Translations under genes and position numbers: made by a program | The notes under the pieces: model-generated | What the model was told of the DNA's origin: nothing | Database searches by the model: none | Seen by the model: only the letters and a program-made list of their open reading frames with translations | Source: Gammaproteobacteria bacterium | Lineage (GTDB): Bacteria; Pseudomonadota; Gammaproteobacteria; UBA4575 | Length of the DNA stretch: 64,000 bases | Assembly (NCBI GenBank): GCA_033344735.1 | Contig: JAWPMW010000001.1 | Coordinates: 911,869-975,868, forward strand | Direction: 5' to 3' | Shown: in pieces, positions 1,391-33,583 of the stretch | Layout of the letters: every line of letters starts with the position of its first letter | Numbering within the stretch: the first letter of the stretch is position 1

Positions 1391-1978
1391 TTACCCTTTG
1401 TCTGAGTCAGCATCAGCAGTCGCTAAACGCTCATACTCTTTCATAATGCCACGTAGAAAATCAACCATTTCACCTGAATTCCAATCGCGTTCACCTGTGG
1501 CCTTATAAATCAATTTACCGGAAGGGCTAATAAGAAATGTAGTTGGCAAACCTGAGACTTCCCAATTAGACAATGACATATTTTTATCAATAACAATATC
1601 GAAATCGACTGGATTATCTTTTAAAAATTGTTTTACTGTGGCTAATGCTGGACCAACATGTACACCAACCACTTTCAATCCATTGCTAGAATTTAACTTA
1701 TTATGCAAATCATTCAGCGCAGGCATTTCTTTTATGCAGGGTGGACACCAAGTTGCCCAGAAATTGAGTAGTACAAATTTACCCTCATAATCAGATAAGC
1801 TGATATCTGATCCATGCGCGCTCATAAGAGTAAAGTTTGATGCTTTTGAGCCAGATATTTTGTCCATCAAACCATCTGCATGCGACAAAGATATCATTAC
1901 AACTATGACGAAGATAAGCGCTGTTAATAGAGCACCTGATTTAACGAAATTTCTCTTACTGCTAGAACTACACTTCAT
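1391..1978 (-). CDS. TlpA/ResA-like periplasmic thiol:disulfide oxidoreductase (thioredoxin fold, WCPPC)
   Basis: NFWATWCPPCIKEMP active site with a TlpA-like flanking pattern. The signal peptide begins at the internal Met (MKCSSSSKRNFVKSGALLTALIFVIVV), so the start is proposed at 1978 rather than the ORF-track 2056. Confidence 0.75.
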   Translation of the reverse strand: MKCSSSSKRNFVKSGALLTALIFVIVVMISLSHADGLMDKISGSKASNFTLMSAHGSDISLSDYEGKFVLLNFWATWCPPCIKEMPALNDLHNKLNSSNGLKVVGVHVGPALATVKQFLKDNPVDFDIVIDKNMSLSNWEVSGLPTTFLISPSGKLIYKATGERDWNSGEMVDFLRGIMKEYERLATADADSDKG

Positions 1979-2083
1979 AATTACCGCTTTGTATTTAATA
2001 TATACGTTAGTAGAGTCAAATATTATAATTAAGTTCGTTTCGAAACACTTGGCCAACCCTTATTAGATAGCCATTTATCTGGC

Positions 2084-2626
2084 TTATTTCTCAGATACTT
2101 TAGTTTCCTCGTAATCCACAAAGACTTTCTTTAAAAAATCCACCATTGGAGGCGAATTCCACAATCTTGAGCCTACCGCTCGATAAGCAAAATTACCTTC
2201 CGGTGTCAGCAAATAGGATGTTGGCAAGCTCGGCACACCCCAATGTCCTAACTCTAAATTGATATCCATAACTACTGGGTAGCTTACTGGAGAAAGCTCT
2301 AAATGTTCATTCACGCCAATGACATCTGGACCAGCATGCACGGCAACTACCTGCAAGATATTTTCTTCAGCGAGCTGATCTAACAAGTCCTGCATTAATG
2401 ACAATTCAGTACGACATACAGTGCATTTTGTAGTCCAAAAATTTACTAATACAAACTTACCTTGCAAGTCCTCAAGATTAAATTTACCACCCGTGGAATA
2501 AGGCAGCGAAAAGTTTTCAGCATGCATGGTACGCGGCATCGCATCTAATAATCTATCCGCATTTGCTATAGAGCATACAAAAATTAAGACAATGCTAGCA
2601 ATAAATTTTAGTTTCATATCTCTCAT
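2084..2626 (-). CDS. TlpA-like periplasmic thioredoxin, second copy (CxxC = TKCTVC)
   Basis: Signal peptide MKLKFIASIVLIFVCSIANA. Thioredoxin-fold motif NFWTTKCTVCRTE and overall similarity to the neighbouring TlpA-like protein. Confidence 0.7.
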   Translation of the reverse strand: MRDMKLKFIASIVLIFVCSIANADRLLDAMPRTMHAENFSLPYSTGGKFNLEDLQGKFVLVNFWTTKCTVCRTELSLMQDLLDQLAEENILQVVAVHAGPDVIGVNEHLELSPVSYPVVMDINLELGHWGVPSLPTSYLLTPEGNFAYRAVGSRLWNSPPMVDFLKKVFVDYEETKVSEK

Positions 2627-3976
2627 CTATTTCACTTTAAATTCTGAATCATGTGCCCAGTTAGGATCTTGTGAACGAATATCACCAATAGGTGCTGCAA
2701 ATCCATCTGCCACCAGGATTTGAATATTATCGCCCGTTAAAGCATTCATAAAGTCAACCAGCTGATCTATTTCTTGTTCAGTCAAATTCAAGGGCTGTAT
2801 CAACGGACTAAGCAGCTCATTAGGCACACCACCCTGATTGTAAAACTCGACAACCTGACGCAAATTAGTAAACGCACCATCATGCATATAAGGCGCTGTA
2901 AGCGAGATATTGCGTAAGATAGGTGTTCTAAATTTCCAACGATCAAATGGGTTTTGTGTAATTGTGTATAGACCTACATCATTCTGCTTAGGTGTTTGCC
3001 GAACAGAATCTATGACTTCATTATCAACATTCACAAAAACGCCAGGCGCCAACTGCACTCGTGTTTGCTTGGGTTTAACACCCATAGAAACATTGTAGCC
3101 ATGACCTGTATTATGCAGTAATTGATCAGTGAATAATGCGTATTCCTCATTGATCAAATGACAAGCTGAACACTTAGCTTTGCCCGTAAATAGTGCAAAA
3201 CCTGCCTTTTCATCTTTGGTCAATGCATCTTCTTGTTTACCATAATACCATTGATCAAATCTTGAGTTACCTGAATTCAACGTTCTCTGGTAACTTGCTA
3301 ATGCCTCTCCCACCGTCTCCATAGTGGGGCCTTTACCATCAAAGGCTTCTTCAAACAGTCCTTCGTATTCTTTGATGCCTTTTATCTTATTGATAACATA
3401 ACCTATAGAAGGATTTGCCATTTCATTCATAGCAAGAAGTGGTGACCATACTTGTTGCTCTAAACTATCTTCTCTCCCATCGTGGAAAAATATATCGAAG
3501 TAACCCACGTTATAAATTGTTGGGCTATTGCGCTTAACACTACGACCTTCAAAACCAATTGCTGTGGCTAACTCATTATTAGCATAACCTTGTTCAGGTA
3601 TATGGCAGATAGCACAAGAGAATGTATCGTTATGAGATAAACGACGATCAAAGAAGAGCCGACGACCTAAGCTAACCTTCTCTTCAGTCACGGGATTGCC
3701 ATCAGGCATCTTCATTTTTGGCAACCCAAGAGGTGTTTGATAAACAAATTGAAGTAAGTCTGCTTGCTTACCTTTTCGCGCTGTTACACTTAGCGAATTA
3801 GTGACATAAGTTTCTTCATCATAACCATGTTTACGATCGCCTGGTCCGAATATAGCATCTTCATTAATATCTTCATTACTAGCATTAGCAATGAGAAAGG
3901 TAGATGCACTTACATATACACAACAGCCAAATAAAACTAGAATCCAGTGGCGCAATTTTAAATAATCAAGTTTCAT
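2627..3976 (-). CDS. Di-haem cytochrome c peroxidase family protein, MauG-like
   Basis: Signal peptide. Two CxxCH haem motifs (FSCAICHIP and KCSACHLIN) in the spacing typical of the bacterial CCP/MauG family, with the conserved PYMHDG and FYNQGG C-terminal region. Confidence 0.85.
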   Translation of the reverse strand: MKLDYLKLRHWILVLFGCCVYVSASTFLIANASNEDINEDAIFGPGDRKHGYDEETYVTNSLSVTARKGKQADLLQFVYQTPLGLPKMKMPDGNPVTEEKVSLGRRLFFDRRLSHNDTFSCAICHIPEQGYANNELATAIGFEGRSVKRNSPTIYNVGYFDIFFHDGREDSLEQQVWSPLLAMNEMANPSIGYVINKIKGIKEYEGLFEEAFDGKGPTMETVGEALASYQRTLNSGNSRFDQWYYGKQEDALTKDEKAGFALFTGKAKCSACHLINEEYALFTDQLLHNTGHGYNVSMGVKPKQTRVQLAPGVFVNVDNEVIDSVRQTPKQNDVGLYTITQNPFDRWKFRTPILRNISLTAPYMHDGAFTNLRQVVEFYNQGGVPNELLSPLIQPLNLTEQEIDQLVDFMNALTGDNIQILVADGFAAPIGDIRSQDPNWAHDSEFKVK

Positions 3977-3982
3977 TTCAAG

Positions 3983-4711
3983 CTAGCTATCTTGCTCTTC
4001 CATTATTAATGTTTTCAAGTCTGCAATTATAGATTGATCATGTAAAAAGCTTGCACTGTATTGGGTTCTTTTATTACCTTGCTTATCAATTAGAAACACT
4101 CTTAAAATATGTGCAAAGCTATTTGTAGGGTTCCCTTCTTCATCGTATTCTTGATTGACATATTGCCCAAAACTTTGCGTAATTGGATCTAATTCATTAT
4201 GAGATGCTGTGGTTAAAAACTGCCATTCAGGACCACCAAAGTCTTTACTTCCTTGACCATAAAATTTCATCACTTCGGGCGTGTCATATTTTGGATCGAA
4301 ACTCAAACTCACCAACCTGAGTTGGTCCGATAATTCGGGGTCGTCTTTCAATGCCTCTTTTAATTTATAGTAGACTGCTGTTACAAGCGGGCAACCATTT
4401 AAATCAGAACATTGCGTAAACATAAAGCTAAGAAGAACAACTTTATCTCCATAAAATTCTGATAGACGTTTCTGCTCGCCTTCATCTGTTAACACATCAC
4501 CGTCGGCGGCCTTTCCAAACGGAGGTAACTCATAAGTCCCAGGCTCAGGCAATTCAAATTGCATATCACCCCACCCTGGTGCATGAAGAAGAACTTGATC
4601 TTCATGACTAGACAATACCGCAGAATGTTCTGCTTCATTATCTGTTTTATCGCATCCGTATAGCGATACAATTATTAGTGAAAAACAAACCAGATATACG
4701 TTTTTCATCAT
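3983..4711 (-). CDS. SCO1/SenC-family copper chaperone (lipoprotein)
   Basis: Lipobox LYGC. Thioredoxin-like core with FTQCSDLNGCP (Cx5CP variant of the Sco CxxxCP motif) and a SFDPKYDTPEVMKFY block resembling the Sco DPxRDTP region. Confidence 0.65.
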   Translation of the reverse strand: MMKNVYLVCFSLIIVSLYGCDKTDNEAEHSAVLSSHEDQVLLHAPGWGDMQFELPEPGTYELPPFGKAADGDVLTDEGEQKRLSEFYGDKVVLLSFMFTQCSDLNGCPLVTAVYYKLKEALKDDPELSDQLRLVSLSFDPKYDTPEVMKFYGQGSKDFGGPEWQFLTTASHNELDPITQSFGQYVNQEYDEEGNPTNSFAHILRVFLIDKQGNKRTQYSASFLHDQSIIADLKTLIMEEQDS

Positions 4712-4816: not shown

Positions 4817-6196
4817 TTATTTATCTACTTGAGACAACATTGTATCCGAAGAGTTCGGCTTTTGAGAGTAAAGCGAATAAGCGCCAAATCTCATTTGGTG
4901 TGCACGACCTAACTTCAATTGATAGAAGTCGATTGTGAACTGATGATCCAGTTTCTTACCATTCCAATGGAACAGTTTGAACCATTGCTCATCATCTTTA
5001 CCAGTCTTATCCCAGTTACCTAACAAGGAAGTAGTGAAGTAAGCACGCTTACCATCCCAGCTTTGAGAGATCATGTTCACTTGTGAACCAATTTGATGCT
5101 CATATGTTTGCTTAGGATTGTGTGGGTCACTGATGTCAAAGTAACGTGTCTTTCCGTCCATGAAAGTTTGAACCCAAAGACCTTGGTCATCAGCGGTGAT
5201 TGAGATATCAACAGGAAGAGGCACTTTTGAAGGATCGCCGATGTCAGCAACTTCCTCTGCTTGCCACTCACCATCTTTGTCTTCATAAACCAACCAGATT
5301 TTTGAAGTCAGAGCAGTTGTAGTAAAACAGAAGTTGTTAAGTCCAGACCATGCACAACGAATTTCTAAAGGTGCACCTGGTACATCAAATACCTTCTTAG
5401 GCTTACGAGTGTGCAAGTCCCAAAGTACCATTGTGTTACCAAAACGTTTCATAGCTTCTGGATCAGACAACATTTGACCGAAGTCCATCATGTAGTTTGA
5501 CCAACCAGTAAATGAAGAAGTTAACATCACGTTGCGTCGTGGAAGCACTCGCACATCGTATCCATAACCGTCAGCAAAATTACCAGTCTTGTTAGCACCA
5601 CGAAGATCGTCGTCAGTTGGGAACCAGTGTGCAGAAACGAAGTCGCCTTCACTAGTGTACTCGGCCATACCAGTTCGACCACCATGGTCTACATTGTTAG
5701 ACAGGGCAGATACCATAATACGTCCAGGTAATGCATAGAAAGTATGAGGGCCAACCATGCCACCAGTCTTGTCAACAAAGTCAGTGATCACTTTGTGAAG
5801 GCTAGGCTGACGTGGATTTGAATGGACATCAAAAATAAAGATCTTGTTGCTATCTAAGCCACCTGCCCATAAATAGCGACGGTCATCAGATAAACCAGAG
5901 TGATGAGCTTCGTTACGACCGCCCACTGAAACGATATGGACAACTTCACCATAATCATCAGCATCTGGGTTTACAGAAATTGTCACAAGCTTATCTTGCT
6001 CGTCACCCAATCCTTCAACACCTAACGTCCATACATATACATAATCTTCCTGGCCAACAATCTTAGCCATGTAAGGTGACATGCATGTCTCATCAGCTTG
6101 AACAGCTGCAGGCATTCCACCAACTAATGCTACTGCACTGATTAATGCTGAAGCTACTGTGCCTCTTGCCCATTTAAAAGGAAGCATTTTTTTCAT
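4817..6196 (-). CDS. mtoX: Methanethiol oxidase, selenium-binding protein 56 (SBP56) family, periplasmic
   Basis: Signal peptide. Full-length similarity to SELENBP1/MtoX (PSLHKVITDF, RYFDISDPHNPKQ, GKRAYFTTSLLGNWDKTG blocks). Flanked by SCO1 and MauG-like genes as in described mtoX loci. Confidence 0.85.
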   Translation of the reverse strand: MKKMLPFKWARGTVASALISAVALVGGMPAAVQADETCMSPYMAKIVGQEDYVYVWTLGVEGLGDEQDKLVTISVNPDADDYGEVVHIVSVGGRNEAHHSGLSDDRRYLWAGGLDSNKIFIFDVHSNPRQPSLHKVITDFVDKTGGMVGPHTFYALPGRIMVSALSNNVDHGGRTGMAEYTSEGDFVSAHWFPTDDDLRGANKTGNFADGYGYDVRVLPRRNVMLTSSFTGWSNYMMDFGQMLSDPEAMKRFGNTMVLWDLHTRKPKKVFDVPGAPLEIRCAWSGLNNFCFTTTALTSKIWLVYEDKDGEWQAEEVADIGDPSKVPLPVDISITADDQGLWVQTFMDGKTRYFDISDPHNPKQTYEHQIGSQVNMISQSWDGKRAYFTTSLLGNWDKTGKDDEQWFKLFHWNGKKLDHQFTIDFYQLKLGRAHQMRFGAYSLYSQKPNSSDTMLSQVDK

Positions 6197-6553: not shown

Positions 6554-7129
6554 ATGGACATTTATAAAATTATCAAGCCATCTAGCCGCACAGCATATGC
6601 ATTTATCCTATGTGTTTTGTTGTCAGCTGGCCAGGTAAATGCAGCCAAATTGGGAGGTGAATTTGAGTTAACCTCCCACAAAGGAGAAACTTTTAGACTC
6701 AGTGATATTAAAGGGAAAGTTGGAATTATATTCTTTGGATTTACCCATTGCCCAGATGTATGTCCTAATACCCTGCTAGAAATCCAGCGTTTAATCATCA
6801 ACTTAGAAGACCAAGCAAAGCACTTAAAAGTACTCTTTATTAGCGTAGATCCTAAGAGAGATACTCCAAGTAAATTAAATAGTTATGTAACATACTTCAA
6901 CAAAAATATTATTGGTCTAACTGGCTCTCAAGAAGACATCGCTAAAGTACTTAAACAATTTAATGCTAGCGTAAAATTTAGCGGTGATACGAGCTCAGAA
7001 ACTTATAATGTAGAACACACCGCGAATATTTTTCTTATCAATAAGCAAGGCGACATTGGCAGCATCATTCTTCCTCGAACCCCCTTTAAAGTATTAGAGC
7101 AACAAGTACGCAAATTGATCTCAGAGTAA
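6554..7129 (+). CDS. SCO1/SenC-family copper chaperone
   Basis: Canonical FGFTHCPDVCP (CxxxCP) motif and SVDPKRDTP block. Signal peptide. Divergent from mtoX. Confidence 0.85.
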   Translation: MDIYKIIKPSSRTAYAFILCVLLSAGQVNAAKLGGEFELTSHKGETFRLSDIKGKVGIIFFGFTHCPDVCPNTLLEIQRLIINLEDQAKHLKVLFISVDPKRDTPSKLNSYVTYFNKNIIGLTGSQEDIAKVLKQFNASVKFSGDTSSETYNVEHTANIFLINKQGDIGSIILPRTPFKVLEQQVRKLISE

Positions 7130-24153: not shown

Positions 24154-27100
24154 TTAAAATGCTTGAATTAGATTAAGTCTAACACCACTAATTTGAGTAT
24201 TATCTTCACGAAGGAAGAATGTTACTACGTGTTGCCCTGGTGTAAGATTAAGTGTTACCGCACCACTCTCTCCTCGGTTTGTAACAAGTGTAGGCACAAA
24301 TGAACTATAGTGTTGTCCTGTATCCCATAAGTATGGTGTTGATGGACCACCATCAACTTGGACAAAGAATGAATCTGAGCCAAAGCTATTTGCAAAAATA
24401 TCTGCTTCTATTTGATAGAGTCCTGCAGTTGTAACATTAAATGTAAACTGCGCTGATCCAGTACTTGGCGTGAAACTATAGTAATCACCAAATGATTCTG
24501 GCACGTGTATGTACTGGCCATTTGCAGCTAACACAAAGGCACCTGATAAACTTGCAGAACTAGCAGGCAAATCTAGTACTTCAGGACCACCACCAGTATC
24601 AGCCTCAACTGTAATAGACACCGCTGCGCTGGTTGTCGTGGCTGCTTCATTATCTGTCACTACTGCTGTCAAGCTATACGCACCTTCAGTCGCACCATTC
24701 CAAGTAAAGCTGTATGGTGCAGTGATGTCACTACTTAACAATGTTGTTCCAGCATAAAAATCTACACTGGTAACACTACCGTCACTATCTGAAGCAGATG
24801 CTGTAATGTTTATTGTATCACCGACAGTAAATGTTGCATTCGCGGCAGGTGCTGTAATCACTACTGTAGGATCAACATTAGCTGGCACCGTAACCGTGAT
24901 ATCAATTGCCACACTTGTAGTGGTCGCGGCTTCATTATCAGTCGCAACTGCTGTCAAGCTGTGAGCACCTTCAGTCGCACCATTCCAAGTGAAACTATAT
25001 GGCGCAGTAGTGTCTGTACTTAACAATGTTGCTCCGTCATAAAAATCCACACTTGTTACAGTACCATCACTATCCGATGCAGATGCTGTGATGTTTATTG
25101 CATCGCCTAGAGTAAATGTCGCGTTTGCGGCAGGTGCTGTAATCGCTACTGTAGGATCAACATTAGCTGCCGGAGTATTTACATTGATATTTATAGCTGC
25201 ACTTGTAGTGGTCGCGGCTTCATTATCTGTCGCAATTGCTGTCAAGCTGTGAGCACCTTCAGTCGCACCATTCCAAGTGAAGCTATATGGTGCAGTGGTA
25301 TCTGTACTTAATAGTATTGCTCCATCATAAAAATCTACACTGGTAATACTACCGTCACTATCTGAAGCAGATGCTGTAATGTTTATTGCATCACCCACAG
25401 TGAATGTTGCATTCGCAGCAGGTGCTGTAATCGCTACTGTAGGATCAACATTAGGTGGCGGTGTTACCGTGATATTAACATCACCACTTACAGAAACATC
25501 ACCATCATCATCAGTTGCAACCGCAGTGACTATATGTGCACCCTCTGCAGCACCATTCCAGGTAAAGCTATATGGCGCAGTGGTATCTGTGCTTAACAAT
25601 ATTGCTCCATCATAAAACTCTACACTTGTTACAGTGCCGTCACTATCTGAGGCATCAGCAATTAAGGTAATAGCGTTACCAAAAACAAATGATGCATTGT
25701 CGGATGGTGCCGTTAAATTTACAGTTGGTTCAATATTTGGAATTGGCTGATTGACGCTGATATTAACTATCGCACTTGTCGTTGCCGCCCCTTCATTGTC
25801 AGTTGCAACTGCAGTCAAGCTATGAGCACCTAATGATGCTCCATTCCAAATGAAGCTGTAAGGCGCATTAACATCGGTACTTAACAACGTGGCACCATCA
25901 TAAAACTCAACACTTATAATTGAACCACCTGGATCTGTTGCATCAGCAGTTAATGAAATAGCGTCACCGACAGTATAGGTAGCATTTGCTATAGGCGCAG
26001 TAAGGCCTACTGTTGGCGCAACATTTTGAGATGGTTGATCTAGGATTAGTTTTACGTTACTTAACTGAGTACCAGATTCTCGATGGTAAAAAGTTACGAC
26101 ATGCTCACCTGCTGATAAATTAACAGTCACTGGATCAGTTTCACCACGATTAATGATCAGTAGAGGTGTGAAAGTATTCTGTATTTCCGTATCCCATAAA
26201 TAAGGTGTATTTGGCACACCATCAACACGAATATAAAATGAATCCGACGTATCATCATTAGCTAGTACCGTTGCCTCAATCTGATATGTCCCCGCAGTCA
26301 CAACATTAAATGTAAACTCTGCATAACCTGCACTTATTCCAAAGTCATAGGCAGGTTCGATATTTTGTGGAACCTCGATAAACTGATTATCAGGAGAAAG
26401 TGCAAATGCTCCAAATATAACTGCATCTTGAGCTGCCTGCTCTAAAACCTCTAAACCTGTATCGCCGAATGGTGTTTCATCAGCATTATCACCAATACCA
26501 TCACCATCGGTATCTTGTGTTTCCGTTGGATCATTCGGGAATACATCACTGTTATCACCAACACCGTCACCATCGGTATCTTGTGTTTCTGTTGGATCAT
26601 TCGGGAATGCATCTTCTGTATCTAGAACGCCATCACCGTCACTATCTATAAAGCTAGCTTGTTCTAGGTAAGCAGACAATTGATCAAGTTCTGTAGAACT
26701 TAAGGTTACAGTATTATGCGCACTAATCGCTTCAGCAACAGTTTGTGCCGAGCCGTCATGTAAATAAGGTGCAGTCTTAAAGATACCAAGCAATGTTGGA
26801 GTATCAAAGCCATCAAGAGTTGACCCTAAACGTTGGCCACTAGCGGTATCAATTGTGCCAATATCATGCAATAGAGCTTGCTCAGAATCTGTCAACAAAA
26901 TCCCAGTATGGCAACTTGTACAACCACTATTATTAAATACAATTTCACCCGCGATTGCTTCAGCTGTCATATCAACCGCAGCAACGGCATATGGATTGGC
27001 AGGTATTTCAGTCAATGAATTCACGTAAGCGGCTAATGCATCAAGATCAGCACTAAGACCTGCCTTTGGAATACCCAGCGTGTCGCTAGTTGCAGTAAAA

Positions 27101-30100
27101 TCAGCTTCACTCATCAAACCAGTGCCCGCCGATAGATCGCGAATTTGTCCTTCAAAGTCTTGCACTTCATCAAAGTTACTTGACCAGTGAAGTCTGCCAT
27201 GACCTGCGCCATGACCTTGTAATGAAATGGTGTTACGTAGACCTTCACCAAATGCACTGATGTCCCAAACTCGACCATCACTATCACCTTCGTTATGACA
27301 TGACGCACAACTCATGTAATTATCAAGTGCTAAACGATCATCAGCTGCATCATAAAATAGTTGCTTGCCTAGGAAGACATCAGATGTTAATTGCTCACCA
27401 CCTACAACATTCACCGGACTAAGCAAATTCAATGCAGGCAGATCCGTTTCAATCATTTCAGTCAAGTCAAAGCGTGAAATACTTCTATCCATAAAGTTAT
27501 GCACATACGCAATACTACTATCAGTAGATAACGCAACGCCTTGAGGTGCACGGCCTGTTGGTAAACGCATTACTTCAAAATTATTAACAATATCAAACAC
27601 ACCAAGTTCACGACTGGTCTCTAAAGCAACGAGCAAGTAACGACTGTTGCCTGTTATTGCAGCACCAGTAGCAACACTAGCATTATCAAAATCAATACTA
27701 ATGTTTACACTGTCTTCAGTTTCAGTAGTTAGATCAATACGTGATGTATTCGCTCTAACAGTTGTATCGAATGTCATGCCTGGCTTGCCGCGCAATAGAC
27801 CTGAATCAACATTATCTTTCTTAGAAGGAATAAACCCGTTCTGATTATCAAAAGAAATAACAGGCGCATTCAGATAGTTTGGCATGCCTGGTCCCTGACT
27901 CTCAGAGATGAAACGATTATCGTAACTAAGTGCGATAGTATTGGTTAAACTCATTGATGGTGGATCGATAACAAATACTTCAGCAGCACCATTTTGCGTA
28001 TCTACAACCAATGTACTCTCACCAGGAATTGGTGGCGTTATAAAATTAGTAACTAACAAACGACTATCATCATATGTCATCGCAATATGACGCGGTGTGC
28101 CTGTCAATTGAGTACTCGCAATGACAGCGTGAGTCACAGCATTACGCGCTTCTACATGCGCCGTTGCTTCCAATACTAAGTAGTAGTTCGAACCAAGACT
28201 GTCGAAAACAATTCCGTGAGGTTGCGTGCCAAACGGCAAGCTAATTGTTTGCTCAACAACGAGTGTTTGAGTATTGATAACACTGATTGTTGCATCTTTT
28301 TTATTGGTTACATATACAAGATTTGCATTAGGTGCTTTAGCCAACGACCAAGGATTAAGACCAACAGGAATTTCTTGAATTAGATTTCCAGCTTCACTTG
28401 TTACAGACACCGAATTATTATCTGGGTTAACATTCCAGATACGGTCAGCACCAGTACTAGTTTCAACAATTAGTGTTGTCGAATTGCGGGGGGCTGTTGG
28501 TAAGTTAGCAAGATTTGAACCACCCGTAGGTGTTGAATCAATATTATCTCCATAACCATCACCATCGGAATCTGCTGTTTCAGTAGGATCATTCGGGAAT
28601 GCATCTGCATTATCACCCACACCATCACCGTCTGTGTCGGCTGATTCAGCTGGATCATTCGGGAACGCATCTGCATTATCACCGACGCCATCACCATCAG
28701 TATCAACTGTTTCAGTTGGATCATTAGGGAACGCATCTTCCGTATCAATGACACCATCTCCATCGCTGTCAACTGGGCCATTTGCCTGTACTAAAATCAG
28801 CTTTAACTCACTTAATTGCGTGCCTGATTCTCGATGGTATAGCGTGACTACGTGATTGCCTGCTGAAAGATCTACCGCAACTGGGTCTGTCTCACCGCGA
28901 TTAATTATTAGCAATGGTGTGAAAGTGTTTTGTATTTCTGTATCCCATAAATACGGTGTGCCCGGCGCACCATCGACACGTACATAAAATGAATCTGATG
29001 TATCATCAGTTGCTTGAACTGTCGCTTCTATTTGATAAATACCAGGAGTTGTTACATTGAATGTAAATTCAGCAGATCCTGCACTTTCACTAAAATCATA
29101 AGCGGGCACAACAGATTGCGGCACCTGAATGAATTGATTGTCTGGAGATAACTCAAAAGCACCAGACAGAACAGCTGCATTGGCTAACAACGCAAGCTCA
29201 GTATTGCCTCCACCATTATTACCGCTACCTTCTTCCACAACTATAGAGACTGGGACACTAGTGGCAATGGCACCGTCATTATCAGTTGCATCTGCAGTTA
29301 AAATATGAGCACCCTCAGTGGCACCATTCCAAATAAAACTATATGGAGCAGTGGTGTCAGTACCTAGCAATACTGCACCATCATAAAAGTCTACACTTGT
29401 AATATTACCATCACTGTCAGCTGCATCCGCAGTTATCGTTATAGCATCATCTTCTGTAAAGATTGCATTAGCTGCCGGTGCAGTTATGCTAACAGTTGGT
29501 AATATATACGGTGTTGGGTCAGAGTTGTCTCCGATACCATCACCATCTGTATCTTTTGTTTCGGTAGGATCATTAGGAAATGCGTCACTATTATCGCCGA
29601 CACCATCGCCATCTGAGTCTGTAGTTTCAGTAGGATCATTAGGAAAAGCATCTTCGCTATCTGGCACACCATCACCATCACTGTCACCTGGACTTTGAGG
29701 ATCTCTTAAAATTTGAATAGTCCTTCCAATCGATGGCGTATCATCACCGTTCATAGCAAATAACCAGTAATTACCTGCAATTAAAACGTTTGGATTAGAA
29801 AACATTGTCAAAGTAAATGTACCGTCACCATTATCGATAGAAGACACAGGGACAACACGCTGATCAGTATTCAAATGGTGAGTCGTTGCTGATAAACGAA
29901 CCATTGAAAAACTTTGTGTATCAGCACTTGCGCTTACAGTTATCTCATCACCAGCTCCAGCTTGTGATGGAGCGTTTGTGATTACCGGACGCGTTGCGAG
30001 TGAACCATCATTGTTGTACAAATAGGGAGGAGAATAAATCTGTGCATCAAGATGATTTGCATCACAATTACCACACGCTCCACCGCCGGCAGAAAATACG

Positions 30101-31614
30101 CGCGCATCTTTCATCAATATAGCAGTTGAGTGATATGTTCTAGGAATTGTTATCGAATCAACAATTCTCCAGCTATCTGTTTCTGGAGTATATATTTCTG
30201 ATTCAAAGACAGCGCCGAAGTCAGTAAAATTAAATGCGCTTGTATTTCCACCAACTACAATCACTTCACCATTTGGCAAGGTCACTGAGTTACTGTATGC
30301 ACGTGGAAAAGTCATCGGCGCACCTTGTGTAATAACAGGTGTAGGACCATTCAGGTCAACAAGATGCACATTAGTGTTAAGGACTGGTGGGGTCTCGCGT
30401 GTGTCTGAACCACCAATTAAAAGAACTTTACCTACATCATAAGTAACTACATTTCCCCACATTCTTGCGCGATTACCTGTAGGTTGTCCCAAATCTTGGT
30501 TTGCAGTGTCATCTATGGGATCAAAAGAATGCAAGGTCGGTGTCGGTCCACCATGAAATACTCTGCCATTAGGTTGAACTGCTAAAAGAGCATACCACTC
30601 CATATTTCCGCCGCCGCCTTGGATATTATTATGCTCTTGCAATAAAGTTTGCATACTAACGTTTGGCGTCCTGATCCAAGAGTTTAAATCCGGGTCATAT
30701 TTTTCAGAGCGATTGCCCGCACCTCTTGCAAACGTTGAAAATATTTGATTATTTGGCAGCGTTATATTTGTTCCATACCATCTTTCATCAAACATGTCCG
30801 GTAATGGCCCCCACGTTAAAGTATTTGGATCAAAACTACTTGTACGTGCATCTTGAGGATTTCCACCTGACGCAACTATGACGCCATTTTCTAAAGTAGA
30901 TACACCAGTACAGAACATATCGTGAAAATTATTGTCAGTCGTTTGAAAAGTATTATTTGATGGATCAAAAACAGCTGAATGTGTATAAAAATTTCCCGCA
31001 GGAAAACTATCCGGCTCACTAGCCGACCACGTCAATATACGTCCATCAGTTAATGTAGCAGCGTAAATAGCAATATGAGGCCAATCAATTACTGGTCCCC
31101 ATTGGCCCATTTCTTTCAGTGTGGAGAGATCACCATTTAGTGCACCATCGGCTGGAATCGCCTCAAATCCTCCACCAGCAACTCTATATTGGACGTCTAA
31201 AAATCCATTTGTACCTTTAGAAAAATATTCAACACGTAATTGATATACACCAGGGTTTAAAAACAATTGCCCACCTACCGTAATCGGTGCATGCAAGCCA
31301 TCATTATCAACAATAAGATTGTTATCAATTAAAAGTGCCGAACCATCATCAGAAGTAGTTTGAAATTCATAAGTTCCAGCTGTAGTGACTGATATTTGAT
31401 TTGTAAAAACTAAACCGAAGGTATCAGTTTGGGACGTCACGTTTAGAGAAATAGTATCGTTGGTACCTGTTGCTATAGGACTTAAAGCAGTAAAATCTGG
31501 CAATTCATCATAATCTCCATCGTACACACTGTAGTCGAACTGTGAATATGCTGTTGAGCAAAATACGATTAACAACAGTGTAAAAGCTGAAGTTAGTCTA
31601 ACTAATTGTGACAT
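24154..31614 (-). CDS. Giant secreted multidomain protein (2486 aa): PA14, galactose-oxidase-like copper radical oxidase, TSP3 Ca-binding repeats, Ig-like domain, CBM-like module, YVTN beta-propeller, di-haem cytochrome c peroxidase domain, TSP3 repeats, CBM-like module, 5 tandem Ig-like repeats, C-terminal CBM-like module
   Basis: Signal peptide. Copper radical oxidase active-site residues conserved (HDMFC235TG, ERWY280, RTY494H495S, TTHH580). DxDGDGxxDxxDAFPNDP thrombospondin-type-3 repeats in three blocks (about 29515-29690, 28500-28790 and 26470-26650). YVTN propeller (LVYVTNKKDATISV). Di-haem CCP domain with CASCH (27296-27310) and CTSCH (26907-26921). Tandem 95-96-aa Ig-like repeats (APYSFTWNGATEGAHSLTA). 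Confidence 0.85.
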   Translation of the reverse strand: MSQLVRLTSAFTLLLIVFCSTAYSQFDYSVYDGDYDELPDFTALSPIATGTNDTISLNVTSQTDTFGLVFTNQISVTTAGTYEFQTTSDDGSALLIDNNLIVDNDGLHAPITVGGQLFLNPGVYQLRVEYFSKGTNGFLDVQYRVAGGGFEAIPADGALNGDLSTLKEMGQWGPVIDWPHIAIYAATLTDGRILTWSASEPDSFPAGNFYTHSAVFDPSNNTFQTTDNNFHDMFCTGVSTLENGVIVASGGNPQDARTSSFDPNTLTWGPLPDMFDERWYGTNITLPNNQIFSTFARGAGNRSEKYDPDLNSWIRTPNVSMQTLLQEHNNIQGGGGNMEWYALLAVQPNGRVFHGGPTPTLHSFDPIDDTANQDLGQPTGNRARMWGNVVTYDVGKVLLIGGSDTRETPPVLNTNVHLVDLNGPTPVITQGAPMTFPRAYSNSVTLPNGEVIVVGGNTSAFNFTDFGAVFESEIYTPETDSWRIVDSITIPRTYHSTAILMKDARVFSAGGGACGNCDANHLDAQIYSPPYLYNNDGSLATRPVITNAPSQAGAGDEITVSASADTQSFSMVRLSATTHHLNTDQRVVPVSSIDNGDGTFTLTMFSNPNVLIAGNYWLFAMNGDDTPSIGRTIQILRDPQSPGDSDGDGVPDSEDAFPNDPTETTDSDGDGVGDNSDAFPNDPTETKDTDGDGIGDNSDPTPYILPTVSITAPAANAIFTEDDAITITADAADSDGNITSVDFYDGAVLLGTDTTAPYSFIWNGATEGAHILTADATDNDGAIATSVPVSIVVEEGSGNNGGGNTELALLANAAVLSGAFELSPDNQFIQVPQSVVPAYDFSESAGSAEFTFNVTTPGIYQIEATVQATDDTSDSFYVRVDGAPGTPYLWDTEIQNTFTPLLIINRGETDPVAVDLSAGNHVVTLYHRESGTQLSELKLILVQANGPVDSDGDGVIDTEDAFPNDPTETVDTDGDGVGDNADAFPNDPAESADTDGDGVGDNADAFPNDPTETADSDGDGYGDNIDSTPTGGSNLANLPTAPRNSTTLIVETSTGADRIWNVNPDNNSVSVTSEAGNLIQEIPVGLNPWSLAKAPNANLVYVTNKKDATISVINTQTLVVEQTISLPFGTQPHGIVFDSLGSNYYLVLEATAHVEARNAVTHAVIASTQLTGTPRHIAMTYDDSRLLVTNFITPPIPGESTLVVDTQNGAAEVFVIDPPSMSLTNTIALSYDNRFISESQGPGMPNYLNAPVISFDNQNGFIPSKKDNVDSGLLRGKPGMTFDTTVRANTSRIDLTTETEDSVNISIDFDNASVATGAAITGNSRYLLVALETSRELGVFDIVNNFEVMRLPTGRAPQGVALSTDSSIAYVHNFMDRSISRFDLTEMIETDLPALNLLSPVNVVGGEQLTSDVFLGKQLFYDAADDRLALDNYMSCASCHNEGDSDGRVWDISAFGEGLRNTISLQGHGAGHGRLHWSSNFDEVQDFEGQIRDLSAGTGLMSEADFTATSDTLGIPKAGLSADLDALAAYVNSLTEIPANPYAVAAVDMTAEAIAGEIVFNNSGCTSCHTGILLTDSEQALLHDIGTIDTASGQRLGSTLDGFDTPTLLGIFKTAPYLHDGSAQTVAEAISAHNTVTLSSTELDQLSAYLEQASFIDSDGDGVLDTEDAFPNDPTETQDTDGDGVGDNSDVFPNDPTETQDTDGDGIGDNADETPFGDTGLEVLEQAAQDAVIFGAFALSPDNQFIEVPQNIEPAYDFGISAGYAEFTFNVVTAGTYQIEATVLANDDTSDSFYIRVDGVPNTPYLWDTEIQNTFTPLLIINRGETDPVTVNLSAGEHVVTFYHRESGTQLSNVKLILDQPSQNVAPTVGLTAPIANATYTVGDAISLTADATDPGGSIISVEFYDGATLLSTDVNAPYSFIWNGASLGAHSLTAVATDNEGAATTSAIVNISVNQPIPNIEPTVNLTAPSDNASFVFGNAITLIADASDSDGTVTSVEFYDGAILLSTDTTAPYSFTWNGAAEGAHIVTAVATDDDGDVSVSGDVNITVTPPPNVDPTVAITAPAANATFTVGDAINITASASDSDGSITSVDFYDGAILLSTDTTAPYSFTWNGATEGAHSLTAIATDNEAATTTSAAININVNTPAANVDPTVAITAPAANATFTLGDAINITASASDSDGTVTSVDFYDGATLLSTDTTAPYSFTWNGATEGAHSLTAVATDNEAATTTSVAIDITVTVPANVDPTVVITAPAANATFTVGDTINITASASDSDGSVTSVDFYAGTTLLSSDITAPYSFTWNGATEGAYSLTAVVTDNEAATTTSAAVSITVEADTGGGPEVLDLPASSASLSGAFVLAANGQYIHVPESFGDYYSFTPSTGSAQFTFNVTTAGLYQIEADIFANSFGSDSFFVQVDGGPSTPYLWDTGQHYSSFVPTLVTNRGESGAVTLNLTPGQHVVTFFLREDNTQISGVRLNLIQAF
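24600..26050 (-). repeat. Five tandem in-frame 285-288-bp repeats encoding Ig-like domains inside the giant gene
   Basis: Near-identical DNA units start at 24670, 24955 and 25243 (caagct[ag]t[ga][ca]gcaccttcagtcgcaccattccaagt), with further copies upstream. A separate pair of about 400-bp CBM-encoding duplications lies at roughly 26055-26460 and 28800-29200. Confidence 0.7.
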
Positions 31615-31885
31615 AGTAAGTTTCTCAAAATTATTAGTATTTAAGCGGTAAATAAATTTTATTACCCTGATCTTATATAATGAGTACTACTAATTCATTA
31701 CTACTATTACGTATTTGTGATCATCTTCTCCCTTTTATCTGGAGTAATGTCTTTTTTGTCTAATCCGACAGTTTTACTTGTATAAATTAGGATAAAGCAG
31801 AAAAGATAAATATTTTTGAGAGAATATTATGAGAAAAGATAAATTCTTTCTCTCACAATAAGTTAAGGTCTGAATTGTTCCGCAG

Positions 31886-33118
31886 TTATTTAACTGACAA
31901 CATATTTAAAAAAGCGACTAAATGATCAAGCTGCTCTGATTGTAAATTCAGTGGCTTTAATTCATGAGCGCCATTATCAGTAGGTGGATGATTATAAAAT
32001 TCCACAACCTCCTTTAATGTGTTAAATCGACCATCATGAAAATAAGGTCCAGTTAACTCAACGTTGCGCAGTGATGGAGTTTTGTAGGCTCCATGAAGTG
32101 GAATATGATTAGTGCGATTTAGAAATCTCAGCGCCGTGCAACTATCAGGTTTAGCATCACTATAAGCACCCAAGCAATTAAATTCATCCATCAACACTGC
32201 TTGAAGTCCAAAGACGCGACCAAAATCAAGCTTGCCTCCTTCAAATCTTCCACTACCAACATTATGAAATCCACCATTAGTCAATAACGCTCCATTATGG
32301 CACTGCATACATTGTGTTTTCTCAGGATCAATAAACAATTTAATCCCTTCTATCTCATCTTTAGTGGGTTCAATGACTTGATTATTTTTATCGAATAACT
32401 GATCAACATAGTTATCAAATCGACTAGGCTTAGGTGCTAACGTTCTTTCATAGGCTTCAATCACCTTACCTAGATTAGAGTACACTCTATTTATCTTTTT
32501 CTGCGTTAAAATAGGTAAACGATACCAGTTATCCTGTGTTTTCATATCACCAAATGGTCCAGCGTGTTTAGGCAAATCACTACTTAGAAAATTTTTCGGA
32601 AATTCACCAAAAATTGACTCGTACATGTCGCGATAGTTCTCATCTTGAGTGACAATACGTACCACAGCAAGGCGACTGCTGCCCATCTCGTCCTTTGCCT
32701 CAAATGGTATAAGCGCTTGTGCCCAAAGTGAATCTCGACGACCATCCCAATAAAACCATCGCAACCATCCACTACCAACAATCGTGGGAGTATTTCTTCC
32801 TGCAGTGTTTTTACTGTTTATATGAGGCAGACCATCTGTGAAATATTTATCTGGTTGATGACAAGTAGCACAAGATGTATCACCATTGCCACTTAAACGT
32901 TCATCAAAAAAAAGTTTCTCTCCAAATGATTTGGCTTGAGGAAGATCAGCAAAACGATTAGATGCGCTATCAGGCAAAGAAGGCAACGCAGAAAGTGATA
33001 GCGACTGCAATATAGATAACTCATATTTAGTCCACTGCCTGTCGCCTGCAAAACAGAATACTGGCAGGCAAAAAGTTATAAGCAAAGTTAACGCGTTAAA
33101 ACGAGAGTTCAATATCAA
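31886..33118 (-). CDS. Di-haem cytochrome c peroxidase family protein (CcpA/MauG-like)
   Basis: Signal peptide. CATCH and CMQCH haem motifs. GPYFHDGRFNTLKEVVEFYN C-terminal block. Overlaps the upstream small gene by 23 nt. Confidence 0.85.
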   Translation of the reverse strand: MILNSRFNALTLLITFCLPVFCFAGDRQWTKYELSILQSLSLSALPSLPDSASNRFADLPQAKSFGEKLFFDERLSGNGDTSCATCHQPDKYFTDGLPHINSKNTAGRNTPTIVGSGWLRWFYWDGRRDSLWAQALIPFEAKDEMGSSRLAVVRIVTQDENYRDMYESIFGEFPKNFLSSDLPKHAGPFGDMKTQDNWYRLPILTQKKINRVYSNLGKVIEAYERTLAPKPSRFDNYVDQLFDKNNQVIEPTKDEIEGIKLFIDPEKTQCMQCHNGALLTNGGFHNVGSGRFEGGKLDFGRVFGLQAVLMDEFNCLGAYSDAKPDSCTALRFLNRTNHIPLHGAYKTPSLRNVELTGPYFHDGRFNTLKEVVEFYNHPPTDNGAHELKPLNLQSEQLDHLVAFLNMLSVK

Positions 33119-33515
33119 AACGTGCTCGATCTTTATAAGATGAATTTTGGATATAAAAATTCAATGTCCATTCTCCAGACATATTAAACAACATACCTTC
33201 AATCAAATAGCTTCCATCACCGAAATATTCAGTGACAATTGGTTGCGAAGGCAACCCATGTCCATGTCCCAACATTCCGCCTTCCACAGTAATATTTACA
33301 TCATCAATCGCATAACCAGAAAGATCTTTAACAACTATTATCCAATTATGGTACTGACCAATCTGATATTGCTCAGCTTGCGGTTGAATTAACACTTTTA
33401 GAGATCCGCTTTGAGAAAAAACTTCCCAGGAAGCTTTATCTGCATGCAGTACAAAACTGATGAGAATAATTAAAACTCCAAAAATACTAGAATTAAAAGC
33501 ACGAAATTTATTCAT
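33096..33515 (-). CDS. Small periplasmic beta-sandwich-like protein (139 aa) with HGHG motif, partner of the di-haem peroxidase
   Basis: Signal peptide. Mature region of about 110 aa containing MLGHGHGLPSQP (possible metal site). Translationally coupled to the downstream CCP gene. Confidence 0.45.
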   Translation of the reverse strand: MNKFRAFNSSIFGVLIILISFVLHADKASWEVFSQSGSLKVLIQPQAEQYQIGQYHNWIIVVKDLSGYAIDDVNITVEGGMLGHGHGLPSQPIVTEYFGDGSYLIEGMLFNMSGEWTLNFYIQNSSYKDRARFDIELSF

Positions 33516-33562
33516 AAACTAAAGCATATAGGTTGCACCACAACTCGACATCATTGGCATTT

Positions 33563-33583
33563 TCTATTCGTGATCATTATCAC
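33563..33583. promoter_or_regulatory. Fur-box-like sequence upstream of the small-protein/CCP/giant-protein gene string
   Basis: tctattcgTGATCATTATCac. TGATCATTATC matches the Fur-box half TAATCATTATC at 10 of 11 positions. 13 of 19 positions match the full 19-mer. Confidence 0.3.

Follow-up and report, generated by a model that had tools for sequence, protein, structure and literature searches.

In a 64,000-nt stretch of the genome of a Gammaproteobacteria bacterium of the lineage UBA4575 (contig JAWPMW010000001.1, positions 911,869 to 975,868; hereafter the window), two overlapping genes precede the gene of a 2486-aa protein that carries a galactose-oxidase-like domain (the megaprotein). 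The first one (the small gene) codes for an exported protein of 139 aa, and the second one (the di-haem gene) for an exported di-haem enzyme of 410 aa. We propose that this pair is a periplasmic two-part module for copper delivery to, and oxidative activation of, the oxidase domain of the megaprotein, and we put the probability of this reading at roughly one half. The pair most likely loads and activates the oxidase, because it is conserved beside the megaprotein gene at the place where relatives of the megaprotein carry a Sco gene. Pairs of a copper chaperone and a MauG-like maturation enzyme are of a kind already known; what is new here is such a pair with a YtkA-fold carrier, which under this proposal would serve a copper radical oxidase.

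The small gene and the di-haem gene form a conserved unit

A previous analysis made from the letters of the window (the sequence-only reading) had described a 139-aa protein with a signal peptide and a MLGHGHGLP motif, a separate di-haem CCP/MauG-like gene that overlaps its gene by 23 nt, and the location of both genes ahead of the megaprotein gene on the same strand, and all these features were borne out (Table 1). The start of the small gene is fixed at its ATG, since a TAG closes the in-frame upstream extension that some relatives have. The overlap amounts to 23 nt when the di-haem gene starts at the TTG at position 33118, and shrinks to 17 nt if it starts at the second TTG (33112). The N-terminus of the di-haem protein, (L)ILNxRF, which is encoded across the overlapped stretch, is kept at the protein level in two related loci (L001 and L004), so that the overlap is taken as real, and a translational coupling of both genes is thus implied. 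Both genes are predicted, with high confidence, to be read as one transcript. Sec-type signal peptides were recognized by eye at the N-termini of both proteins.

One genome per species was scanned with the signature GGMx[GAS]HGHGL, which yielded 167 species, and 80 loci were kept. A di-haem gene lay directly downstream of the small gene and on the same strand in 67 of the 76 loci with room for it, and in 17 of 73 loci one open reading frame spanned both genes. In addition, of the 120 best-matching relatives of the di-haem protein, 19 combine both Pfam domains in one protein. The gene of the fusion P0097 immediately follows that of a megaprotein homologue. In this fusion, the C-terminus of the carrier is joined to the N-terminus of the mature di-haem protein; the second signal peptide is absent, and therefore it is a true fusion and not a frameshift artefact. 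In the literature searched on YtkA-like or FixH-family proteins with peroxidases, no description of such a pairing was found.

The small protein belongs to a copper-handling family

The N-terminus of the small protein (MNKFRAFNSSIFGVLIILISFVLHA/DK) resembles a signal peptide. The Pfam model YtkA (PF13115) matched residues 51-118 with 30.8 bits (gathering score, 25.9), and the same domain was present in 23 of 23 relatives with precomputed domains. No NCBIfam model matched the small protein, and its public annotation at NCBI is only 'FixH family protein'. The sequence-only reading had stated that its maturation idea would fall if the small protein belonged to a known, unrelated family. The family is indeed known, but it is not unrelated: YtkA and its structural neighbors are copper-handling proteins, so that the maturation idea is strengthened, rather than refuted.

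The 25 close relatives of the small protein are 120-180 aa long, and H56, W58, G79-G80-M81, H84, H86-G-L-P-S and Y103, among other residues, are invariant in them. Across 57 sequences from many phyla, W58, M81, H84, H86, M112 and W116 were each conserved in at least 91% (91-93% for W58 and W116), and H56 fell to 56%. The proposal that His56 marks the partnership with the di-haem enzyme was rejected, since the residue is His or Gln in the paired genes and Leu in five orphans, i.e., the pattern is too loose; these five orphans retain the Met/His loop and Trp58. The extracytoplasmic location (signal peptide) and the conserved His/Met residues that characterize CtaK-type proteins were both found, and, unlike in CtaK, there is no lipobox Cys. 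The mature protein has no Cys at all, hence a type-1 electron-transfer copper site is impossible.

The AlphaFold model of the small protein, which was built on the family alignment (predicted local distance difference test score, pLDDT, 87.8), consists of the signal helix followed by an eight-strand sandwich. Nothing in the PDB matched the small protein in sequence searches with the single sequence or with the family profile. With Foldseek, the single significant match of the model was CrdA of Helicobacter pylori with bound silver (E 7.6e-6). When 1.8 billion representatives were searched with the profile, 3297 clusters passed a threshold of E<=1e-3 and 1100 passed one of E<=1e-10, and the top family matches include tandem-duplicated forms. 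Furthermore, fusions to the copper chaperone PCuAC (P0118 and P0172) carry the exact signature HxW ... GGMPxHGHGLP ... FNMxGxW. The predicted binding of copper by the small protein is well supported, if indirectly, by the CrdA-like fold, the PCuAC fusions and the exclusion of Sco described below, which also point to a role in metalation.

Further architectures were observed in the small-protein family (P0033, P0037, P0038 (~280-300 aa), P0169 and P0167). The architectures of the family comprise tandem double YtkA domains on a lipoprotein, with a MxxHGHGxP loop in each domain, a DUF3703 + YtkA fusion, and a 345-aa protein that combines a YtkA domain with a membrane helix and an N-terminal domain of unknown type.

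The 410-aa protein has the ligand residues of a MauG-class enzyme

Public records label the 410-aa protein 'cytochrome c peroxidase'. It matched the CCP_MauG model (PF03150) with an E-value of 4.4e-41 and has two CXXCH motifs, in line with the di-haem CCP/MauG-like gene of the sequence-only reading. Within this family, the sixth ligand of the second haem separates the classes: peroxidases have a Met at this place, whereas both MauG and BthA have a Tyr (PMC6405878). In HMMER alignments, Tyr375 of the 410-aa protein aligned with Tyr294 of MauG and with Met258 of the Nitrosomonas peroxidase (1iqc), so that a Tyr stands at the position of the Met of the canonical His/Met electron-transfer haem. 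Trp124, in the motif FYWDGR, occupies the position of Trp93 of MauG (motif FWDGR) and is 95% conserved. The distal-pocket residues Gln134, Pro138 and Glu144 are conserved, as is the Cys315/Cys327 pair, which resembles the disulfide of BthA. Judged by these residues, the 410-aa protein is MauG-like and not a canonical peroxidase. The earlier idea of a MauG-like enzyme with a small partner was thus upheld by the Tyr and Trp residues at the MauG positions, and by the synteny and the fusions, which define a tight unit.

The best sequence matches in the PDB were the Nitrosomonas peroxidase 1iqc and then MbnH (6e1c). The 410-aa protein scored 124 bits with the model of true MauG (TIGR03791; cutoff, 443.85) and 126 bits with the MbnH family model (TIGR04039; cutoff, 362.85), and it was also far under the cutoff of the His-Xaa-Ser MauG-like model. 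No methylamine dehydrogenase genes were found in the flanks of the locus, and it has no MbnP partner. The window codes for another MauG-like protein (2627-3976), whose identity to the 410-aa protein is 29%, so that the two genes are not recent duplicates.

The pair and Sco exclude each other beside the megaprotein gene

Residues 191-650 of the megaprotein matched galactose oxidase (9g8h) with an E-value of 3.5e-90. The motifs HDMFCTG, RWYGTN, TYHST and THHLNTDQR align with galactose oxidase, and every copper and cross-link residue is retained. Since the cross-link Cys (HDMFC), the Tyr, the Tyr-His pair and the last His are in place, the oxidase domain needs copper. The trio of small, di-haem and megaprotein genes was found in unrelated flanks in Gammaproteobacteria, Myxococcota, Spirochaetales and a Polaribacter metagenome-assembled genome (MAG), with the megaprotein gene upstream on the same strand in 17 cases, downstream on the same strand in 9, and divergent in 3.

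A reverse survey was carried out with the di-haem domain of the megaprotein as the starting point (metagenome loci, n=80). The pair was present in 11 of the 80 loci, and the oxidase domains of these loci tend to be the closest to that of the window. Among the open reading frames downstream of the megaprotein in loci without the pair, SCO1/SenC was recognized by Pfam in 8 of 10, and with tblastn 31 of 69 pair-less loci had a SCO1/SenC gene immediately next to the megaprotein gene and on its strand. As to the megaprotein loci that bear the pair, a Sco gene was found in 0 of 41. For this exclusion the Fisher p value is 2e-8 when all loci are taken and 0.005 when the unbiased metagenome set is taken alone, and both values are optimistic, because some of the loci are near-duplicates. 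We read this as a non-orthologous displacement, in which the place of the chaperone beside this oxidase family is taken either by Sco or by a YtkA-type carrier with its MauG-like partner.

The megaproteins of loci L089-L168, which represent the wider family with oxidase, propeller and di-haem domains, come mostly from soil and rhizosphere metagenomes and are 1450-3000 aa long; in these loci SCO1/SenC usually abuts or overlaps the 3′ end of the megaprotein gene (e.g., L113:11214-11807, L152:11241-11825 and L141:6229-6807). In the pair-less locus L107, a protein with a heavy-metal-binding domain (HMBD) is encoded at the place of Sco. The di-haem domain of the megaprotein itself (residues ~1429-1652; ~26660-27330, minus strand) has, in an alignment made by eye, an apparent His (PYLHDGSAQTVAEAISAH) at the Tyr/Met position, which suggests a third type of ligation, and this domain also matches a RoxA-like Pfam model.

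A model for the function of the pair, and its alternatives

In the proposed model, the small protein would bind copper on its Met81/His84/His86 loop, probably together with Met112, and would pass it to the apo-oxidase, i.e., it would play the role that Sco has for related megaproteins and for GlxA of Streptomyces. The 410-aa enzyme, with its Tyr/His-ligated second haem, would use the H2O2 made by the oxidase in order to reach a high-valent state, and would then act by oxidizing a target bound to a protein, not by detoxifying peroxide. This target would probably be the Cu/Tyr-Cys centre of the client during its maturation or re-activation, or possibly the copper bound to the carrier. In this model we infer the copper binding, the direction of the copper transfer and the identity of the substrate of the di-haem enzyme. 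The sequence-only reading had suggested that the pair could mature the copper radical oxidase domain or a partner site, and a role in maturing the oxidase is still the best-supported reading, in view of the conserved synteny with the megaprotein.

Several observations weigh against the model. The megaprotein gene was present within 10 kb in only 19 of 45 fully flanked pair loci, and in Nitratireductor and Mesorhizobium the pair lies among unrelated housekeeping genes, beside putA and lrp. Since the pair often occurs without the megaprotein, it must have a function for which the megaprotein need not be close by. In nine loci, mostly of Granulosicoccaceae, the small gene has no adjacent di-haem gene. 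Conversely, both the pair and a separate MauG-like gene are lacking in most members of the wider megaprotein family, and the megaprotein has a di-haem domain of its own, so that an additional di-haem enzyme is not generally needed by such oxidases. Finally, fungal galactose oxidase makes its Tyr-Cys cofactor by autocatalysis. A bolder reading, which we hold to be doubtful, is that the 410-aa protein is either a MauG-class activase for the Tyr-Cys radical cofactor or the maker of a new protein-derived copper site on its small partner. An activase would install or re-oxidize the Tyr-Cys cofactor in an H2O2-driven reaction, by long-range electron transfer, and the fused or coupled YtkA-type domain would deliver the copper. 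If true, this would be the first enzymatic, and not autocatalytic, route to a Tyr-Cys cofactor, and the first physiological client of an orphan bis-Fe(IV) enzyme outside tryptophan tryptophylquinone (TTQ) and kynurenine chemistry.

A different reading, which is possible though rather unlikely, is that the pair is an autonomous system similar to MbnP/MbnH, in which the di-haem enzyme oxidizes a residue of the carrier (Trp58 or Trp116, e.g., to kynurenine) and thereby creates or tunes a copper site. The mature carrier would then serve general periplasmic copper acquisition or buffering, and the proximity of the oxidase would reflect a local demand for copper. The order of the genes, with the copper protein first and the MauG-like enzyme after it, is that of mbnPH (PMC11951088), but the small protein has no similarity to MbnP, no NCBIfam match and a different fold. 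The two Trp residues lie next to the conserved Met and His residues and are themselves highly conserved, although they may be mere core residues of an Ig-like sandwich. The fusions put both domains in one polypeptide, but the SCO1-MauG fusions of mto clusters imply that a fusion of a chaperone with MauG need not mean a substrate relationship. The frequent occurrence of the pair away from the megaprotein fits an autonomous system, whereas the small genes that have no adjacent di-haem gene do not. As to the megaprotein loci, those partnered with Sco have no separate MauG-like gene nearby, which suggests that the di-haem enzyme goes with the YtkA-type carrier and not with the oxidase; the strict exclusion of Sco beside the megaprotein points, on the contrary, to a role directed at the client. 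It is also conceivable, but improbable, that the pair is a peroxide-disposal unit, in which the 410-aa protein acts as a peroxidase that removes the H2O2 of the oxidase and the small copper protein is its electron donor, as azurin or pseudoazurin are for canonical peroxidases. The pair does adjoin an oxidase that produces H2O2, a pair locus of Thiothrix has a gene with a copper amine oxidase domain, i.e., another H2O2 producer, and BthA, with the same Tyr/His ligation, still reduces H2O2 when it is given an electron donor (PMC6405878). The replacement of the canonical Met ligand by Tyr, the Cys-free carrier that has no type-1 copper site, and the di-haem domain that the megaprotein already possesses argue against this, and replacement by a Sco chaperone is not expected of a scavenger.

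The sequence-only reading had also pointed to a Fur-box-like site and, from it, to iron-responsive control. That the genes are a Fur-controlled, iron-regulated operon of iron or haem metabolism is, in our view, very improbable. The sequence is present: TGATCATTATC, at 33571-33581, matches the right half of the Escherichia coli Fur consensus at 10 of 11 positions, with 9 contiguous bases. It precedes the small gene by 55-68 nt, and L004, which is the closest relative and shares the ppnP flank, has an identical block. In an 11-mer test against shuffled sequence, however, six such 10/11 matches were found in the window against 3.7 expected. The site matches the 19-mer consensus at 13 positions, and 48 positions in the 64 kb score at least 13. 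A site of at least 13/19 upstream of the pair was absent in the 22 other loci, L004 being the only one that has it, and since the L004 intergenic region is 84% identical throughout, the conservation there says little. The site is also shared with the divergent ppnP promoter region. The Fur-like site is therefore no better than chance and has no phylogenetic footprint, and iron-responsive control is not supported.

Relation to known systems

The copper-dependent methanethiol oxidase gene mtoX clusters with SCO1/senC and mauG, and those two are sometimes fused (Eyice et al. 2018, PMC5739008). The window contains a complete cluster of this kind, all on the minus strand, with mtoX (SBP56) at 4817-6196, SCO1/SenC at 3983-4711 and the MauG-like di-haem gene at 2627-3976. 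The mtoX cluster resembles the trio in that a periplasmic copper enzyme, a chaperone and a MauG-like di-haem enzyme are encoded in an operon-like arrangement, with fusions of the chaperone to MauG. It differs in its chaperone, a thioredoxin-fold Sco there and a Cys-free YtkA fold here, and in its client, which is the SBP56 enzyme there and a galactose-oxidase-like domain within a 2486-aa protein here. Two thioredoxin/Sco-like genes and a further Sco gene were observed near the mtoX cluster (regions 1391-2626, minus strand, and 6554-7129, plus strand). The window thus holds two separate sets of copper enzyme, chaperone and MauG-like enzyme.

Maturation of the radical copper oxidase GlxA of Streptomyces lividans needs Sco and the secreted haem peroxidase DtpA (PMC4736821). 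In both systems a copper radical oxidase is, or would be, matured by a chaperone and a haem peroxidase that works with the H2O2 made by the oxidase. DtpA is, however, a mono-haem Tat substrate of the DyP type and not a di-haem c-type protein, the chaperone is Sco, and the genes do not form a translationally coupled or fused pair. MbnH forms Kyn174 in the His/Met/Kyn copper site of MbnP, and MopE and CorA are also kynurenine-containing copper proteins (PMC11951088). The MbnP/MbnH, CorA/CorB and MopE systems share with the pair the gene of a secreted copper protein followed by that of a MauG-like di-haem enzyme, and His and Met are used in the MbnP copper site. Neither in sequence nor in fold is the small protein related to MbnP, and no methanobactin or TonB genes were found near the locus.

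In Bacillus subtilis, the assembly of CuA involves CtaK (YtkA) and the YtkA domain of YcnJ together with Sco (PMC13344008; PMC9145763). CtaK and this domain of YcnJ are of the same Pfam family as the small protein and extracytoplasmic, their conserved His/Met residues have been proposed as copper ligands, and they act in supplying an oxidase with copper, either together with Sco and PCuAC or in their place. CtaK is a lipoprotein for the CuA of cytochrome caa3, whereas the small protein carries a plain signal peptide, stands out by its GGMxxHGHGLP loop and is partnered with a di-haem enzyme. CrdA is CopC-like, and nanomolar or tighter binding of Cu(I) on its Met-rich loop has been proposed (PMC9182242). 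The identity of H. pylori CrdA (PDB 9ll2 and 9ll4) to the small protein is 17-20%, with no match at the sequence level, and CrdA differs in having a Met-rich, His-free loop (PMC9182242) and a copper-efflux context. On the side of the enzyme, the closest analogy is with BthA of Burkholderia (PDB 6nx0), an orphan of the MauG class that has Tyr/His ligation and a disulfide near the six-coordinate haem, which compare with Tyr375 and Cys315/Cys327 of the 410-aa protein. BthA has Ser in place of the inter-haem Trp, 477 aa and a putative phosphatase as its partner, whereas the 410-aa protein keeps W124.

The proposed model would assign a function, one that can be tested, to a pair of wide distribution (167 species in the scan of genome representatives; about 1100 protein clusters at E<=1e-10) that is now labelled 'FixH family protein' and 'cytochrome c peroxidase', and it would extend the YtkA/CtaK fold from the assembly of cytochrome oxidases in Firmicutes to the copper radical oxidases of Gram-negative bacteria. 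The natural swap between Sco and the pair of a YtkA-type carrier and a MauG-like enzyme could reveal the redox help that a Cys-free copper chaperone needs. In addition, orphan MauG-like enzymes are a class that keeps growing, and the oxidase would offer a candidate for their physiological client. The culturable hosts of the trio (Marinobacter, e.g., M. salicampi ISL-40, and Lentisalinibacter) open a route to the study of the giant oxidase/di-haem protein.

Gene neighborhood and noncoding elements

The pair and the megaprotein gene are flanked on one side by ppnP and a dksA/traR-like gene, which are divergent, followed by recR, ybaB and dnaX, and on the other side by rsgA and the gene of RNase T. 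Since these flanks are housekeeping genes, the three genes form a self-contained island. The coordinates of all features are given in Table 1.

Table 1. Location in the window of the genes, protein motifs and noncoding elements of the locus.
Feature	Position	Strand	Remarks
Small gene, 139-aa exported YtkA/CtaK-family protein, putative His/Met copper carrier	33096..33515	-	ATG start
Signal peptide of the small protein, residues 1-25	33441..33515	-	predicted cleavage after LHA, assigned by eye; AlphaFold N-terminal helix 3-22
Conserved loop G79-G-M81-L-G-H84-G-H86-G-L-P-S-Q-P92 (contains MLGHGHGLP), putative copper site together with M112	33240..33281	-	invariant in 25 close relatives
Di-haem gene, 410-aa exported enzyme, MauG class by its residues	31886..33118	-	TTG start; 23-nt overlap with the small gene
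First haem motif C83-A-T-C-H87, peroxide-binding haem	32858..32872	-	kept in 97% of 65 paired relatives
Second haem motif C270-M-Q-C-H274	32297..32311	-	kept in 98-100% of relatives
Tyr375 codon, predicted sixth ligand of the second haem	31994..31996	-	Tyr in 64 of 65 paired relatives
Spacer of 271 nt that separates the di-haem gene from the megaprotein gene, fold z = -2.1	31615..31885	-	
Hairpin in the spacer, AT-rich, ~15 bp	31825-31860	-	directly after the di-haem stop codon
Promoter-/operator-like block in the spacer, ~95 nt, ends in a TATATA-like element	~31661-31754	-	conserved in L004, L001 and L006
Megaprotein gene, 2486 aa, presumed client: PA14, galactose-oxidase-like copper radical oxidase domain, YVTN propeller, di-haem domain, Big_7 repeats	24154..31614	-	
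Palindrome GTGATCATTATCAC, Fur-like site, in the divergent ppnP/small-gene intergenic region	33570..33583	.	conserved only in L004

The spacer hairpin is followed by a U/C-rich stretch, with no clean U-run, and shows no obvious conservation in L004. It could act as a weak terminator or could affect the stability of the RNA. A search of the spacer against Rfam gave no family at or near the gathering score. Given the hairpin and the conserved promoter-like block, the megaprotein gene may have a promoter of its own, so that an obligatory co-transcription of the pair with the megaprotein gene, as the previous analysis had envisaged, was not sustained.

The palindrome in front of the small gene, GTGAT-N4-ATCAC, fits a pair of half-sites of the CRP/FNR type at least as well as it fits Fur. 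This candidate was rejected as well: GTGA-N6-TCAC was found twice in the window against 0.76 expected, GTGAT-N4-ATCAC exactly once, neither of which is significant, and the site is not conserved beyond L004. The 13-mer ATGATCACRAATA occurs exactly twice in the 64 kb, at 31712-31724 and at 33565-33577 (both on the minus strand), i.e., upstream of the megaprotein gene and upstream of the small gene, where it lies inside the palindrome, and the block around the spacer copy is also conserved in L004, L001 and L006. The 13-mer might be an operator common to both regions. As a significant shared element it was rejected, with a rough chance estimate of about 0.3 for a match between two 250-nt regions, and its statistics are circular, because the 13-mer was defined after both copies had been seen.

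Other loci of the survey

Orphan small genes were located in the Granulosicoccaceae MAGs L021, L023, L027, L032, L035, L039, L048 and L066. A DAO flavoprotein encoded downstream of them was considered as a partner and rejected, since it has no signal peptide and is a cytoplasmic PuuB/OrdL-like protein. Likewise, the gene of about 1200 aa that stands beside the pair in rhizobia was identified as PutA, which is unrelated.

In a Thiothrix MAG (L084:7507-9849, plus strand), a 780-aa protein with copper amine oxidase and MAM-like parts is encoded on the strand of the pair and directly upstream of it. This protein could be another client, of the copper/quinone oxidase type, that the same pair serves. 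The full trio was found in cultured isolates of Marinobacter (L018, L038 and L045) and in Lentisalinibacter sediminis C23 (L080), in which the carrier and the di-haem protein are fused. In L001 (SGMAG-67) and L006 (SGMAG-20) the trio adjoins, in its upstream flank, genes of tetrahydromethanopterin-linked C1 metabolism (FTR, MCH, Mpt_N and Fhc-like), which hints that the hosts of these two loci are methylotrophs.

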